From NCBI RefSeq assembly GCF_011745625.1, contig NW_027191468.1, forward strand, positions 434,001 to 498,000: DNA of 64,000 nucleotides, read 5' to 3'. This document shows, piece by piece, positions 12,035-25,336 of this stretch (position 1 is the first letter of the stretch; every line of letters begins with the position of its first letter). Origin of the DNA: Cladosporium halotolerans. Lineage: Eukaryota. Under the pieces are notes generated by a model. It did not search any database. It had not been told where the DNA came from and saw only the letters and a program-made list of their open reading frames with translations. The position numbers and the translations under genes are program-made.

Positions 12035-12650
12035 TTTGGCGGCTGCAATGTTTATTGTCTAGCAAAGCATCTCAGGCCTGTGACTCTCGAGTCGCGTGTA
12101 GTCGGAGCTGCGAGGGAAGCTTGGGCCAACTGGCTGACATCATTTCACAGCCGTCAGTTTTCGTCCTGGACGCAGCGTCGTGCGGCAAATGTGAAATGTT
12201 ATGGGGTACATGGTAAGGTAGAAACCATTAATTATCGCTTACCGCTTTGCACTCAGTTTGAGATCACGTATCGTCGCCTGACGGCTAGCTCTGCAACGCT
12301 GCTCTCGTTTGGGATTCATCGACGCATGCGCGTTTGTTGAACTTGCAGCAGCTTCAATAGCTGCTGCAGCCAGACATGGGAGGCTTCGAGATTGTCGGCC
12401 AAATGTCTTCGGTCGAGAGCGCGCTCGAGAGCGACGAAATTATGGCCTTTCAGCATAAGCCGTTACAACAGATGATGTTTGAACCCATCAACCGGAACGC
12501 TGACGGATGTCGATCTGCCCCTCGGTAATCTGTGCCTAGCGGATCCAATCGCGTTCTATAGAATGAAGTCATTGCCCCTCCTTGGTGGAGGTACAGCAGA
12601 CAACAGCTCGAACTAACTGCAGGTATTTCTAATACCAATTCCACTTGATC

Positions 12651-18057: not shown

Positions 18058-20985
18058 ATGCCCCAAGCCCACGGCGGCCGGGCGGCGCAGCGTGGGGGTC
18101 CTCTGCGAACGCCCGATGCCCTCGCCGACGACTTCATGGACTCCAACGCCGCCATTGCCTTCGGCGTCGACAAGGCCCTCGCCAGCCATACCTCGCCCTC
18201 GTCGCCGCGCAACGTGCGCATGCCTCCCTCGCAAGTCGACCCCACCGTCTCCGGCTCCTCGTCCGCGATCCAGTCGCTGACTTCGGCCAGCACGCTGAGC
18301 ACGCTCGAGGGCAGGCTGGACGGCTCGCCCAGCGAGGCCACCGCCCGCCAGGGCCTGCTGCAAGACTCGTTCCTGGACCAATGGAGGGATGACGGCGTGG
18401 AGACCGAGACGCCCGAGGACATGCAGAAGAACGACCCGCTGGGCACGCAGATTTGGAAGTTGTACGCCAGGACAAAGGGCCAGCTGCCGAACAGCGAGCG
18501 CCTCGAGAACTTGACGTGGCGCATGATGTCGATGAACTTGCGGAAAAAGGAGCGCGAGAGGCTGCAGCAAGGGTATGCGTTTTGGGTGTCTCCATCTATT
18601 GTCTTTGCTTACTAACGACGGCGAAATTACAGGCTGCCCTCGCGACCACCGCAACAGGCACGCAACGCTCCCAGTGGAATCGCTCAGCTGAGGCAGTCCT
18701 CCGATCAGACTATCAGGCCCGCGAACACCGATGAACCGATGAATCTGGACGACTTCATTGTACCCACATCCATCGGCACACCCGCAGGCATCTCGCCTAC
18801 CCCCTCAAGTGCAGTCGCCGACTTCGAGTCTACGCCTGCGACTGCTTCTGGTATTGCTATCAACAGACGCCAGCAGCAGATTCAAGATGATGAGTTCAAT
18901 CTATCTCGAGCTTCAGCTCCCTCTGTCGGTCCTTTCGAGCAAGGCCGCGCCCTGAACGAGTTTGGCTATGTGCCCAGGCATGTGCGGAAAACAAGCATTG
19001 ACGAGCGAAGGGTCAGTCCTTGATTACTAGTTTTTCGCGTCATGATTCAGAATCAAACTAACAGCGTGTAGCCACCTAAGCGACGAGCCGAAGCCTCGCC
19101 TCAGGTACCGCCCGTCAGTAACCACTCCCTCCTGGACCACAATGTACCGGCCGAAGCAGCACTGCCAGACTACTCTCTGGATGGCTCCAGCTCGGCGCAA
19201 ACGCTCCGTCCCAACATCCCTCAGGGGTCATTACCCTTCAACCTCGACACTTTTAATCTCGAGAACGACCCAATCATTAACTCCGCGGGACCGATGCAGA
19301 ACAACTTCAACTTCTCGCCAGTTGGCTCACCTATGATGAACAGTGGAGGGTTCAGCAACATGTACGGCATGCCAACTTCGATGCCACAGTCGCAGGCTCC
19401 TAGTAGTTTTCACTCACCCGTTGGATCGACCTTTCACTCTACAGTCTCGACACCTCAGCCTATGCCGGAAGAACAGATGTATTTTGGTCAGCAGCACCAA
19501 ACACATTATGGTTCTATGCCCAACTTCTCTCAGCACCACGGCCAAACCCCGTCTCACGGTTCTATGCCGCAGCAGCAATATGTCTTCAACCCCAACGGCG
19601 AATCCATGTTCAGCGCCCTGACCTCCGCCAGCCAACCGAGCTCTTTCAGCCAATCCGCATTCCAGATGCCCAGTAATTTCGATAGTCAGCACATGCGACA
19701 CGATTTTGGCGGCCCGAGCAGTCTTCCTTTTGGCCGCACCGAGAACATGTTCACTTTCGGCGCTGACTCCGACAACGACGAGGATGATGTGATGTCTTTT
19801 GGCGACCAAAGCATGTCCCAGAGCTTTTCGCCTATGGACGACAATCTTTCAGTGTCAGACGTGCCGAACAGCTACCAGTGGGAGCAGAACCTGTCCAACC
19901 AGTTCAACCCCACAGCTGCTCGATATCCCGGCGGTCCACCTCGCAAAGGTGTGACTATTGGGCACGCGGAGATGATTCCGTCTCCTCAGCAGCAGCAGGG
20001 TGGGTGGGACCAGGGCGGACTTGGTAGAGGACATGCTTCTTCCGCTTCGGTCAGCGACGTACGCAACCGTAGCGGACCGCAGCGAACACGGAAGATCCCT
20101 CGTACGACTTCGACACCGAACACTGTTGGCATGGCCACTGGCATGTTCTCGATTCGCCCGCAATCCTCGCCCAACTCACCGCCCGAGTCTAACTTCAGCT
20201 CTGCAGCTCCCTCCAGACCTGGCAGCCCACGTCCTGGCGGCGACAGCAGCGTTCCTACGACTTGTACTAACTGCTTTACGACTACTACACCACTTTGGCG
20301 CCGCAACCCGGAGGGTCATCCTCTCTGCAACGCCTGCGGCTTGTTCCTCAAGCTGCATGGTGTGGTTCGACCATTGAGTTTGAAGACTGATGTTATCAAG
20401 AAGCGCAACCGCGGCAGTGGCAACCCTTCGACTGGCACTTCTTCGCGATCGAAGAAGATGGCTAGCCGCAAGAACTCGATCGCGCAGTCCACGAACACGC
20501 CATCGAGGACTTCCGCCAACGACGCAGACTCGCCGAAATCAACCGCAGGCTCGGCTGGTACTGGCACTGCGGCTACCACTCCTACGAGTGCTGCCTCGGA
20601 GAAGCCGACGACGAAGAACCCGATTGCCATCGCACCTGGTCCGCCGAAACCTACTCCGATCGCACCCGCGTCAGCCCCTACGCGCGCCATCCCGCCGAAG
20701 AAACAGAGAGGTCAGAGCAAAACGTCCAACACTCTGAACCAAGACACGGAGATGGGCGACGCGGATGACATGAGCCTTGGCGGTGGCCTCAGGAGCAGGA
20801 AAGACGCGCAATCAAAGGTGTCACCGATGCACGGCCAGTTCTCATCGCAGCAGAACACCATGCCCATGCAAGCTGCCATGGGTCCGCAGGGTGGCAGCGC
20901 TTCTGGACCGCAACCACCTCCCGGCGTCCCTCCCAACATGATGACTGGCCCGCAGGAGTGGGAGTGGCTCACAATGAGCCTGTAA
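18058..20985 (+). CDS. areA: Global nitrogen regulator, GATA zinc-finger transcription factor AreA/NIT-2; exons 18058-18572, 18633-19011, 19072-20985
   Basis: [11 protein letters not shown]...[14 protein letters not shown] (DUF1752), [30 protein letters not shown] finger [50 protein letters not shown], and C-terminal [10 protein letters not shown]. Confidence 0.97.
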
Positions 20986-21971
20986 GTGATGTCTGAGAAT
21001 GAAAGGCATGCAACGCCAATGCGAAGGAGCGATTAGGAGTATGAAGGTAGACGGGCTACGATGATATACACCAAGAGTGTTCGATGATACCCGGGCGCGC
21101 CCTGAGCCGGCACCACTCCGTCCATCTGCAACAGGTGCGGAGAGGAGCGGCGGCGATAGGGCGCGCTCAAATCCCTGCACACGCAGCTCTTCGCGGCCGC
21201 CGGAAGCACTCATTTTTCCTGGCAGCCACGGAGTACGATTACCCATCTCGAGGAGCGGACTGTTACATCTGATTACTTGTTCTTTTGCAATTTATTCCAC
21301 GCGCGCGCGCGGCACCAGCTCCCGGACCTCGCAACATCTCTGGGACATTTCGATTCTATCAAACCCCCTTAACTTATTCTGTTTACACCACCTGGATTCC
21401 TCGGACGCGGCGGCTTGAATGAAATACCACGATTCAAGCCCGGGTTCGCCTCGCGCTCAGTTGCTCGCTACGTCACGGCTTGTTGGGAAGATGATACACC
21501 ACTGCTTTTTCTATTTCACCCCCTTTCGCCATGCTCTGCTTCGGTTAAGGGTTGGCTTGAGAGATTTTTCGATGATCCCCGCGATGGCCGTCTGCGCCTC
21601 GACCTGTCGCTTTTGTTGTTTCTGATTTCTGGTAGCGGGCTTTTGATTGGTTTTCGGCGATGAGCCATATGTGGCAGGATTTCTGTTTTTTTTGGCTTTG
21701 TCTTTAGTTTCTGACACGAGATCACGACTATTCTTGTATAGAGGAATCACTATTCGCTGTTACACATAAGCCTGCTTCACAGCCCGCACACTCTCGCTCT
21801 TGATCATGTCGGCGACTTCGATTTACAGAGGAATCTTCACCTGACCGCTTGGCCTGTGGGAGAATACAGCCCGCCCAACACCAACCTCAGCTCCCACAGG
21901 CAACAACCTTCAACGCCTCTTCTCCAGCACCTTGCCAATCGAGGCAGGATGACCGATGAAAAAGCATTGAT

Positions 21972-22080
21972 TCCAATCAGGGCCACTTGATCCTCATGTT
22001 AATTTCCGCGTCACCGGGGCCTCCACAATAAATCAGAGGCCTCCGCGCAGGCCGGAAAGAGGTGTCCTCATCAGCTCGGA
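21972..22080 (-). ncRNA. Candidate box C/D snoRNA-like RNA, about 110 nt
   Basis: Minus strand reads TCCGA-GC-TGATGA (box C, 22073-22068) ... CTGA (D', 22036-22033) ... ATGAGGA (C', 21997-21991) ... CTGA (box D, 21980-21977)-TTGGA. The terminal stem TCCGA/TTGGA has canonical 2-nt spacing and extends with GAT/ATC. No guide target was verified. Confidence 0.4.
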
Positions 22081-23455
22081 TATCTCAGCATATTGCGTGC
22101 TGTCCCCCAAGGTCCCCTCTCAAAAAGTCCCCGAAGGAACGATTGGCCGCTCCACCCAACACGCTCAATTCCGTCAATGTCGCCCACTGCGCGTGAAACC
22201 CGCGTCGACCGATCGGTACCACCCTCTCGGTCTCCGCGCGCGCGCGCCCCAGAACCTCTGTTCAGATCCGCTCTTCTGTCCGCCTTAAGGGGCCCGGACC
22301 GCCCCAGCAGCCCCGGCAAATCGCTCGCAGCAGCTCCGGCGGGCTACTCTTGAACCATCGCACCGCCTCGCTCGCGGGGCTCTTCGCTCGCCTCGCAGTG
22401 CATGTGATGGGAGCTCACGCCGCGCCGTCGGAACGCTGCACCGCCTCTTCTCTCCAGGCCAGTGGAGGGGTTCAATCCTGGTGGCCGTCTTGGCCCTCCG
22501 GTCACCGCCGCCCGGTGGTGGAGGATGGTGATGTTGCTGGTGAAGTGAGGTTGGGCGAGGCGGTACCATGTCAAGGCCGGCGACGAGGTGTCGCCAGCGA
22601 TGCTAGAAGGTCAGCTTTGAAGAGGAGGCCGACAACTTACCCGTCCCTGGTCTACTAGCCGTTTCTGGGAGTGACGGCGTTCCTGTCCGAAGACTTGGAT
22701 CAATACCGTCGACCGACCGGATGCTTCGTTAATGACCAGCTTCAGTCAGGGTCGGAGGGTCTTGAGGGGATCTGAGGATCGAGGGGGTTGTAGTTGCGCC
22801 TCGAGAGAAAATGGAGCGAGAAGTACGCGAAAGGAAAGATGGAAGAGAAGGGGAACAGCCGTCTGGGTGAATGGGTTGTCAGGCCCGTGGCCGTCAGGCT
22901 GTGGTGAGGAGGCGGAAGGGGTGAGGTAAATGAAGGGGAGGTTGGTGGTGATGTGCTGTGGTGGATGAAGAGTCGAGGTAGGTCGAAGCTGAGCGGGCGG
23001 CAAAACCAATATGTTTACGTTGTGCGCCAAGAGCGCGTTTGCTCCCGTGTCGCGGCAACGGGACGCTGTGTTGATATACAAAAGCGGAAGGAACGGGGGA
23101 GGCGAGGTACTGAGGCGGTCTGAGAGTTACTCACCTTGGGGTATGTCGCGTGAATATCGACGCGTCGGTGTTGTGGTATCAAGGTCGATTTTTGTCGGTG
23201 GATGTAAGTGAGGTTAAGTCACGTGGGTTAGCTCCCGATCATTTGGCAACCCCAGCTTGAGACGCCAAGTACCCTCAATCAACAAAGCGACGAACACAAA
23301 CAGGATTGATCACTGAGACCATAGAGTAACTCGATTCTAGATGCGTATATACAGTACCAGTCATGACTCCCATTCAACGCCATCGCTAGAAAGCTAACAA
23401 CCAAGCCGACAAATGCAAGCAAGAATCATCTGATCTAGTCTTTCATCTACAACGA

Positions 23456-25336
23456 TCACCGCGTCCTGTCCGGGCTCGCATCGTCACCATCACTACCGCT
23501 CTCCTCATCACTGCTGTGCTCATCGAAGCCGTCCGCCTCCAGCGCCGCGCTGCGGATCCCGATGCTTAACAGAAAGCCAACGAACGAGATACCAGCGAAT
23601 ATGCCGAAAGCCAGCAGCTCGCCCTTCTTCTCGACTTTAGTTGCAGCAGTGAACAGCGCTCCGCTGATAAAAGGCCCAACGGCCCTACCAGCGGCCGAAA
23701 GCGTCTGGGCAAGGCCATTGAGAGTGCCGAGCACGGCGTGCGAGGGCGCTGAGTTCGTGATGAGCAGCAGGGCAGAGGTGAGACCACCGACGGCGGCTAC
23801 GGTCTTGATGATCAAGACTGCGCCAAGTTCGACCCAAAGCCATACACGGCCTACAGTGGTTGTCGGGCCGCGAACACCACCGTGCGAACCGTCCTTGTAC
23901 CCTACCCACGGAATCAAGAGGAAAGCGACGACAAAGCCTGCCAGGCCAGTACGATAGGTGGTCTTGTTGCCGACCTTCTCCCGCAGGCGACCAAATATGC
24001 CGACCTGGAAGATGATAGTCACAATGCCGGCGAATGCGAGTGAGATCCCAATTTCTTCCGGGTTCAGGTCGCGACCAGTAGGCGGCGGAGCCTGCGCAAA
24101 GATGGGGTAGAGGCTGTTGAAAGAGATGTTGGCGAGCTGGAATATGAGGAAGGTGATGAGCAAAATGACTGTGTCACGGTTAAGAACCTCGCGAGCAGTG
24201 AGACGGTTGGACCCGTCGGTCGAGGCGAAGAATGCTGGCGTAGACTCAACGGAAGATTCGTCATCGTCGGAGTAGTCCTCATCTTCAGCGCCGTCGGAGA
24301 TGGTACCGTACTGCTGTCGCCGCTCTTGATGTTGCTTCCGAATCTTGGCACGGCGGAGGTACGTTGGGCGGCGAGAGCTCGTGAACTGCCAGATCCAGGT
24401 AAAGAGTGTGCCGACCCGCTTGCTGAGAGGCGGCAGGTTCTTTGCCTCGTCGAGCGACTCCTCGAGGAAGATCATAGTCAAGACGAGGTCGATGATTAGT
24501 ACAGCCGCTGAAAACAGGTTTGGCGGCAAGTAGGGGTAGGGGTTGTCCTTGTTTGTGAACGGGATTTTCTTGAGCACCAGCAGTCCTCCGACAATTGGAC
24601 CTGTGATACCGCCGAGCCCGTAGATGACAGGCAAGTACGTGAACGCTCTGCTCTGGTTCGAACGATCTGTGATCTCCCCCAGACAAGTGCTGATCACGCC
24701 CTGATTGCCGTTGACCAGACCCATCAATGCCTGCGCAAGCACCGCCTGCCATAGTGTCCGACAGAACCCAAAGCCCACGAAGCACACAGCCGTCAAAAAT
24801 GTCCCCAGCAGCACAATCGGTTTCCTCCCGATGCGATCAGACAGCAGGCCCCAAGCGAAGTTGGTCGCGAACTGCGCCAGCGCGAAGGAACTCGCGATCA
24901 ACCCCACGTATAGCCCAACTTGTCCATCCGACACCTCCGGGAATGTACTCGCCATCTCTGGCAAATACGGACTTATGCTGTTCAACGCCGTCTGTTCCGC
25001 CAGCGCTATCACCGCCAAAATCGCCAACTGTTTCCGGGGCAGTGGTGTCTCGTGGTGTTCGTGGTGTTCAGAGTCATTCTCGCTGGATTCCGAACGCGGA
25101 GGCGAAGGCACTCCCGTCGAGCCATTCTGCGCGGAGCCATTCTGCTTGAAGGATTCTTTCGAAGACCGGTTCCCCAGGTTGCGCGGCGGCGCGGCTGGGA
25201 AGGTGTGGTACTTGAAGGTCGAGGACTGGCGCTGCATCAGGGTTGGCTTGTCCAGCGGGTGGACTTGCGGCCTGGAGGATGTCGTGCGCGCGGCCAGTGG
25301 CCGAGTTTCTTCCCCGGTCGCCGAGCCTGGTCGCAT
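23456..25336 (-). CDS. MFS transporter (DHA1/tetracycline-resistance-like)
   Basis: TPLPRKQLAIL, motif A (WGLLSDRIGRK), about 12 hydrophobic segments and an acidic central loop. First ATG is at 25336 (MRPGSATGEE). Confidence 0.9.
   Translation of the reverse strand: MRPGSATGEETRPLAARTTSSRPQVHPLDKPTLMQRQSSTFKYHTFPAAPPRNLGNRSSKESFKQNGSAQNGSTGVPSPPRSESSENDSEHHEHHETPLPRKQLAILAVIALAEQTALNSISPYLPEMASTFPEVSDGQVGLYVGLIASSFALAQFATNFAWGLLSDRIGRKPIVLLGTFLTAVCFVGFGFCRTLWQAVLAQALMGLVNGNQGVISTCLGEITDRSNQSRAFTYLPVIYGLGGITGPIVGGLLVLKKIPFTNKDNPYPYLPPNLFSAAVLIIDLVLTMIFLEESLDEAKNLPPLSKRVGTLFTWIWQFTSSRRPTYLRRAKIRKQHQERRQQYGTISDGAEDEDYSDDDESSVESTPAFFASTDGSNRLTAREVLNRDTVILLITFLIFQLANISFNSLYPIFAQAPPPTGRDLNPEEIGISLAFAGIVTIIFQVGIFGRLREKVGNKTTYRTGLAGFVVAFLLIPWVGYKDGSHGGVRGPTTTVGRVWLWVELGAVLIIKTVAAVGGLTSALLLITNSAPSHAVLGTLNGLAQTLSAAGRAVGPFISGALFTAATKVEKKGELLAFGIFAGISFVGFLLSIGIRSAALEADGFDEHSSDEESGSDGDDASPDRTR

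Follow-up and report, generated by a model that had tools for sequence, protein, structure and literature searches.

What is transcribed from the minus strand between areA and its neighbour in Cladosporium halotolerans? The gap lies in a stretch of 64,000 nucleotides (nt) of RefSeq assembly GCF_011745625.1 (contig NW_027191468.1, positions 434,001 to 498,000 of the forward strand; hereafter the window, in whose coordinates positions are given), was single-copy in the genome, and is flanked by areA (GATA finger; plus strand; last exon ending at 20985) and by an intronless MFS gene (minus strand; stop at 23456) whose closest named homologs belong to Cladosporium species (78-79% identity). An inspection of the letters alone (the sequence-only reading) had proposed here a spliced, highly structured long non-coding RNA (lncRNA) or host of a small nucleolar RNA (snoRNA), made by RNA polymerase II (Pol II) and convergent with areA. 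Our analysis points instead to an independently transcribed minus-strand Pol II gene of the small nuclear RNA (snRNA) class, ending in an orphan box C/D RNA. The assignment to this class, with a terminal C/D RNA, was considered quite probable, and the account as a whole somewhat better than an even call. The class was assigned because a 3' hairpin, an abutting C/D domain with a stem in the register of U3, and a CACGTG promoter element were found together (Table 1).

The 3' signal was defined on the flanks of the U2, U3 and RNase MRP genes of this genome, used as controls: TTTCAYC, a hairpin and GGAGAAG stood directly after five of the six, and the same element followed box D of the candidate. 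Genome-wide, the pattern was matched 26 times (4 in the control), and nine of the 25 distinct loci were U1, U2, U3, U4 or the snR107/U14 host according to Rfam; a stricter pattern was matched 11 times (once in the control), and its one new locus proved to be U1. The signal was common to 11 Rfam-identified loci: U1 (three), U2 (three), U3 (two), U4 (two) and the U14 host. A covariance model was trained on 10 loci identified through Rfam, with the candidate held out; it gave the candidate hairpin an E value of 1.5e-6 and no other strong match in the window (next, 11.9 bits), and the best score in 200 kb of control DNA was 16.8 bits. Sixteen pattern loci outside the training set were scored: four reached 30-37 bits and 12 stayed at or below 18.7 bits; among pattern-selected viral loci, 1 of 80 reached 30 bits. 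The model was run on pattern-selected loci, and the count of signal-bearing genes is a lower bound.

In genes terminated by RNase III, a hairpin of at least 20 base pairs (bp) directly follows the mature 3' end (PMC8421224). The candidate hairpin starts where the C/D stem ends and is 25 bp long, and would be a cleavage and termination signal for an RNase III of Pac1/Rnt1 type. Its core, an A.A mismatch adjoining UCAG/CUGG, was also found 5 nt after the 25S rRNA in the 3' external transcribed spacer (ETS) of the rDNA (L041:2030-2082, minus strand; 18.7 bits), and the 3' ETS is known to be cut by Pac1 (PMC8421224). The genome has a frame for a single-domain, stand-alone RNase III (G000:C237, near 138 kb). 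Two other possible processing sites were discarded: the model did not recognise a hairpin in the leader (22544-22450), and no long hairpin was found spanning the predicted splice junctions. A weak second match to the model (11.9 bits, E 0.67) lay on the plus strand at 21830-21869, just past the end of the areA mRNA, where it might stop areA read-through; insertions fall in it in a relative described below.

The candidate C/D domain comprised boxes C (22073), D' (22036), C' (21997) and D (21980), with C and D 93 nt apart, closed by a stem in kink-turn register; the register was taken from established knowledge and then checked against the U3 of this genome. In shuffled sequences such stems were rare (P 0.0034 for at least 5 bp, 0.001 for 8 bp with a bulge). 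Of the 95 TGATGA..CTGA pairs present in 264 kb, this domain ranked first: three pairs had a stem of at least 4 bp, and this one alone had inner boxes. Stem-closed pairs (at least 5 bp) occurred twice in 528 kb of strand, which by arithmetic sets the chance of one ending within 20 nt of the hairpin near 1e-4. Box C is preceded by C instead of the R of RUGAUGA, as it is in several Neurospora crassa snoRNAs; UUCG loops and the AUGAGGA variant are also known from snoRNAs of that species (PMC2780460), the variant being internal in CD14 and CD49 (supplement 1 of the same paper). At L049:4587 (plus strand) a further TGATGA..CTGA pair was closed by a 6-bp stem in register, with neither inner boxes nor an Rfam match.

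The domain was terminal in the predicted transcript, as in U3. Since box C (TGATGA) was absent from both intron-like segments, the C/D domain was terminal and splicing was unseen, an intronic snoRNA host was not supported; no CTRAC branch site was found downstream of the domain before 21037. What gained support in the proposal of a Pol II lncRNA or snoRNA host, through the shared 3' signal and more strongly than that reading had argued, was a non-coding Pol II gene on the minus strand that carries a box C/D element. The sequence-only reading had noticed the box C/D motif, whose TGATGA and CTGA boxes are present, and had overlooked both the 3' hairpin of snRNA type and the complete set of C, D', C' and D boxes closed by a terminal stem; it had placed the end of the unit at 21750, and the RNA 3' end was moved to about 21969, with the processing hairpin reaching 21909.

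CACGTG was found 130-304 nt before the start of seven of 11 known Pol II snRNA and snoRNA genes, and within 400 nt in 24 of 480 background windows; a pyrimidine-rich run preceded the start in 11 of 11. This spacing would place the start of the candidate at about 23095-22920, inside the first predicted intron. The best fit was 22966, with 23030, 23151 and 22829 as possible alternatives from sequence context. With a start at about 22966 the first splice donor would belong to the promoter, which agrees with the absence of its junction. The second intron-like motif (38 nt) lay below the peak of intron motifs in this genome (50-64 nt), three of 49 being shorter than 46 nt. At 23154-23129 (minus strand), a GTGAGT donor comes after TTCACGCGAC, an arrangement shared with the 5' end of both U3 genes; 200 kb of control DNA contained the same 10-mer twice. 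The promoter and intron context in the available text of PMC4138321 and PMC3596301 neither supported nor contradicted this arrangement.

Table 1. Features of the areA/MFS gap, in window coordinates.
Feature	Position	Strand	Remarks
snRNA-type 3'-end hairpin	21909..21970	-	25 bp; TTTTC-A-TCGG..CTGG-A-GAAG core with A.A mismatch; -33.1 kcal/mol; 31.8 bits
Candidate box C/D RNA domain, ~116 nt	21969..22084	-	terminal stem of 5 bp, or 8 bp if one bulge is allowed, between 22084-22076 and 21976-21969
Box D (CTGA)	21977..21980	-	
D-guide interval	21982..21990	-	perfect 9-bp complement to 5' part of L071; lead only
Box C' variant (ATGAGGA)	21991..21997	-	
Box D' (CTGA)	22033..22036	-	
Box C (GC-TGATGA)	22068..22075	-	9-nt context GCTGATGAG, equal to that of the terminal box in the U3 of this genome
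Putative 5' leader, ~880 nt	22085..22966	-	indel-tolerant in 3' half; may be removed or retained; start predicted
UUCG hairpin	22127..22140	-	named in the sequence-only reading; broken in relative X6
94-aa ORF, judged non-coding	22285..22569	-	no homolog, no Pfam, Atlas first hit 0.76; deletions in X6
38-nt intron-like motif	22603..22640	-	retained in sole covering RNA contig
Pyrimidine tract like the stretch just before snRNA starts	22800..22858	-	alternative start near 22829
272-nt intron-like motif	22863..23134	-	not seen spliced; probably largely promoter
Best-guess transcription start, 22966	22960..22970	-	CTCTTC|ATCC, as U1 and U4 starts; predicted
TATA-like element	23008..23017	-	~45-50 nt before 22966
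Second TATA-like element	23078-23070	-	TATATCAAC, as in U4b promoter
CACGTG promoter element	23220..23225	.	

The RNA data were contigs assembled from four of 24 runs (X8, X4, X1 and X6), all of which showed spliced areA; contigs give neither strand nor ends and lose rare forms, so that minor splicing may occur. The contigs of areA stopped at 21744 (X8) and 21769 (X4), and that of the MFS gene at 23333 (X1). Run X6 came from a relative about 97% identical, in which one contig of 7,797 nt had both areA introns spliced, then ran from 19071 to past 24400, and covered the gap, including the whole leader, unspliced and continuous with the MFS mRNA. From its length, its ends would fall near the starts of areA and the MFS gene, suggesting bridging by RNA rather than by DNA. 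Neither 23135^22862 nor 22641^22602, the two joints predicted by the sequence-only reading, was present in this contig, the only one of the four runs to cover the gap. Five deletions (3, 18, 23, 1 and 12 nt, 57 nt in all) were found in X6 at about 22135-22537, and none in 22601-24400 (from depth bins; four inserted letters are unlisted); no listed indel fell in the candidate C/D region (22134-21866).

From these elements, the following course of events can be proposed. Pol II would start near 22966 and make a capped precursor of about 1 kb. A stand-alone RNase III would cut the hairpin at 21970-21909, ending transcription without polyadenylation before the 3' end of areA, and the exosome would trim back to the C/D stem at about 21969. 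Snu13, Nop1, Nop56 and Nop58 would bind the C/D motif, and the leader would most likely be cut off and trimmed, leaving a snoRNA of about 116 nt that is probably not a standard rRNA methylation guide; its best target lead would be L071, a lineage-specific RNA with an Sm site. Removal of a capped leader is the usual route for independent C/D snoRNAs (PMC12508059), and the version of the gene in which the leader is lost was judged marginally better than even. The mature RNA would measure either 116 nt or about 1 kb.

Several results weigh against this account. The inferred leader, at about 880 nt, is long; in yeast most leaders stay below a few hundred nt. A well-marked RNase III site on the 5' side was not found, and the 3' signal was absent from U5, U6 and MRP, hence not universal. 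Rfam searches of the window and of sub-regions, which the sequence-only reading had suggested as a check, gave nothing at the gathering threshold; weak archaeal C/D matches (E 0.2-4.6) fell on the same boxes as the candidate domain. No homolog of the candidate RNA was found in 32 metagenome loci anchored on the MFS gene, and the hairpin model, run on 21 of the 32, gave no match. Three of the four RNA runs (X8, X4 and X1) gave no cover of 21801-23200, which was not counted as silence. The spacer differed in X6 at an estimated 5-6% of sites (a bookkeeping figure), about the synonymous rate (pS 6.4% in areA, where 26 of 28 listed changes are synonymous). No significant rRNA guide was found, the best duplex energy being -38.4 against a shuffle mean of -38.1 (125 of 300 shuffles as good), and the GC-rich D' guide was predicted to be sequestered in a hairpin. 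None of the N. crassa box C/D sequences listed in the available part of PMC2780460 resembled the candidate when compared by eye.

The same gene might yield an RNA that retains the 5' part of about 0.9 kb, capped at one end and protected at the other by the C/D ribonucleoprotein (RNP) as in U3, with its function in the 5' part, or with the leader forming a separate RNA. This is unlikely, though a serious contender. Ten of the 11 identified signal loci encode RNAs that retain the capped 5' end (U1-U4), as these RNAs do generally; the box C context and stem register equal those of U3; and X6 covered the entire leader unspliced, with no deletions in 22601-24400 against five in 22135-22537. A precedent for a separate leader RNA is mamRNA of Schizosaccharomyces pombe, upstream of snoU14 (PMC12508059). 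Against retention, the leader folded no better than shuffles, 57 nt were deleted and a UUCG hairpin broken in a relative of about 97% identity, and a full set of C, D', C' and D within 116 nt suits an ordinary snoRNA. Improbable is an origin without any functional RNA, in which the hairpin is a fail-safe RNase III terminator of MFS read-through or of cryptic transcription toward areA, and the C/D boxes arose by chance: in X6 the cover of the gap and that of the MFS mRNA were continuous, some protein-coding transcripts of S. pombe are terminated by Pac1 (PMC8421224), divergence was near neutral and no target was found, but chance would scarcely place a stem-closed C/D pair so close to the hairpin, and an snRNA-type promoter element stood upstream. 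A decayed or recently assembled snRNA-class gene, for instance a relic of U3, with promoter, terminal C/D and 3' signal and no current role, was held to be more improbable still. It would explain the U3-like donor and box C contexts, the missing guide and the indel-rich body; no significant alignment to U3 was obtained beyond promoter-like composition, however, the TTCACGCGAC 10-mer recurred in control DNA, and the hairpin scored like those of functional loci.

The spliced, structured lncRNA acting on the areA 3' UTR, as proposed by the sequence-only reading, now appears highly improbable. Its motifs were all present: CACGTG; AAG|GTGAGT at 23134 and CCTGAC..CAG ending at 22863 (272 nt); GTAAGT..GCTGAC..TAG at 22640-22603; C(UUCG)G at 22692 and 22136; a 9-bp hairpin at 22598-22576; and CAGCA/TGCTG at 22102-22086. 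Block shuffling (2000 replicates, the motifs having been picked after the fact) gave P 0.013 for a pair of strict intron motifs on the same strand and P 0.0045 for two UUCG hairpins; together with the convergent arrangement and the control of mRNA decay by the areA 3' UTR in Aspergillus nidulans (PMC4282371), these two figures speak for it. CACGTG alone was unremarkable (P 0.28). Overall structure was not borne out, folding being equal to that of shuffles (z = -0.79 for 22660-21760 and +1.20 for 22966-21969), with z below -2 in four of 37 minus-strand windows of 120 nt, against a background of 6.9%; the second UUCG hairpin is broken in X6 by the 3-nt deletion at 22135, and the predicted splicing was missing from the X6 contig. 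The proposed action on areA fails because of distance, complementarity and synteny. The ends do not overlap, about 140 nt lying between the end of the hairpin (21909) and the ends of the areA contigs (21744-21769); the best complementarity to the areA 3' UTR was 13 bp with one G-U, in the hairpin broken in the relative, besides matches to GC repeats; and the neighbours differ in relatives, areA being absent from 32 of 32 metagenome MFS loci (15 of which had at least 1 kb of downstream DNA), so that the gene pair is not syntenic in the metagenome relatives examined. Scans of viral and prokaryote collections for areA or the MFS gene found nothing. A small protein gene with introns in its 5' UTR (94 amino acids, aa, or about 140 aa if translation began at a near-cognate codon) or a telomerase RNA was rated lowest. 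The minus strand has no ATG between 23242 and 22569, where the 94-aa open reading frame (ORF) begins in a reasonable context, and one spliced frame has a single stop in about 207 codons. The lack of recognisable homology was upheld, neither this ORF nor an upstream 44-aa frame having a homolog; protein-level conservation was not seen, the 1-nt and 23-nt deletions within the ORF shifting its frame in X6; and processing at an RNase III hairpin implies no poly(A) tail, which argues against a protein gene. Telomerase RNA was not located elsewhere among the genome matches listed for RF02462, an uninformative search, but no 8- or 9-nt TTAGGG template was present in the candidate, and the 14-nt and TCAGGG repeats implied by local words were absent from the assembly. 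Words resembling RNase MRP RNA were also rejected: there was no RF00030 match, and the true MRP gene is on another contig.

If the locus is an snRNA-class gene with a terminal C/D RNA, its partner is of interest. Methylation guides have a complement of 10-21 nt to rRNA or a spliceosomal snRNA beside box D or D'. None was found in comparisons with rRNA and with U1, U2, U4, U5 and U6: against the five snRNAs nothing exceeded 9 bp, and the best D' match was 9 bp with one G-U to helix 44 of 18S rRNA, reached by 14-19% of controls. Extra pairing by C/D guides has been described (PMC3116282). A bipartite D' pairing to helix 44, with 11 bp added nearby, was rejected because it was significant only with fitted thresholds (P 0.0015-0.002 with thresholds fitted afterwards, 0.26 with looser ones and nothing by duplex energy). 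A guide of snR4/snR45 type (PMC5464676) was likewise discarded, no complement to the 18S 3' end or the helix 34 sites being found at the expected places. The D interval matched L071 with a chance of 0.6-0.9% against 13 small RNAs, or 2-3% once rRNA is included, figures still to be doubled because there are two guides; the complementary site is predicted to be paired within L071, and targeting of this RNA is a doubtful lead from sequence. Doubtful to a slightly greater degree is a capped RNA of about 1 kb on the plan of an enlarged U3, with a long domain at the 5' end, a C/D RNP at the other and a 3' end made by RNase III; it would belong to an uncatalogued lineage-specific set of snRNA-class RNAs in Cladosporium-like fungi and whose D guide would pair with and methylate L071.

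L071 (G000:C35, ~504250-504410, plus strand) was one of three loci, with L079 (G000:C153, ~236860-236959, plus strand) and L093 (G000:C681, ~12170-12338, plus strand), that combined a TATA element with a start rich in pyrimidines, an Sm-type site AATTTTTG and the 3' hairpin described above (30-37 bits). None had a sense-strand Rfam match at E up to 2, and by their sequence they are possibly undescribed Sm-class snRNAs. L093 has U1-like loops without the 5' end that pairs with the 5' splice site; L071 begins with tandem CCACTTGA, also complementary to part of U2. The MRP gene (L034, G000:C35:149937-150413) measured 477 nt against a model of 266 positions, with GTAAGT near its 3' end. U5 (L226) and U6 (L225) returned one match each. 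The U5 locus is partly duplicated upstream, on the other side of an N gap; the 5' part of U6 looked atypical, perhaps interrupted by an intron. The areA 3' UTR (20986-21770, plus strand) is about 760-780 nt long by contig ends, with only three small indels in X6. Interstitial CCCTAACCCTAACCCT sites numbered 47 genome-wide, on many contigs (4 in the control), and no run of four TTAGGG was present in the assembly.

The locus points to an unannotated non-coding RNA gene invisible to Rfam. The A.A-mismatch hairpin appears to mark the 3' ends of snRNA-class genes in this genome and gives a way to find others; it predicted a further U1 gene and exposed the three Sm-site RNAs without an Rfam family. 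Orphan C/D RNAs have proved to guide acetylation or to chaperone rRNA, and a lineage-specific one with a testable partner would be of interest; on present evidence it has no bearing on areA control. Orphan C/D snoRNAs with genes of their own are already known kinds, as are 3' hairpins for RNase III, and the candidate RNA itself is absent from Rfam; a literature search of partial coverage brought up no description of the RNA, nor of this hairpin core from Pezizomycotina.

Among known systems, the telomerase RNAs of Pezizomycotina (PMC3592445) are also long, fast-evolving Pol II non-coding RNAs, but the candidate has no template, a single P6.1-like loop near its 5' end without a template upstream, and no RF02462 match. 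The acetylation guides snR4 and snR45 (U13) are likewise independent, orphan-looking C/D RNAs (PMC5464676); those pair bipartitely with 18S rRNA, whereas no complement to its 3' end or helix 34 stood at the expected places here. The mamRNA-snR107-snoU14 precursor of S. pombe (PMC12508059), and the snR107/U14 host of this genome (L074), which ends in the same 3' hairpin, share with the candidate a non-coding Pol II precursor with intron signals; the candidate differs in having no snoRNA in its intron-like segments, no long hairpin across the predicted junctions and no splicing seen. Independent box C/D snoRNAs of filamentous fungi such as the orphans CD52-CD55 of N. crassa (PMC2780460) are intergenic, with a Pol II promoter, and 116 nt is within their size range, but the candidate has a GC-rich, self-pairing guide region and a very long leader. 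In U3 (two copies in this genome; snU3 and snU32, Pac1-terminated, in S. pombe), boxes A/A' and B are present that were not recognised in the candidate, which had no RF01846 match although both real copies exceeded 120 bits, and which, with its leader retained, would exceed U3 about threefold in length; like U3, the candidate would be an independent Pol II gene, with a terminal C/D of the same GC-TGATGAG context and stem register and an RNase III-type hairpin directly after box D.

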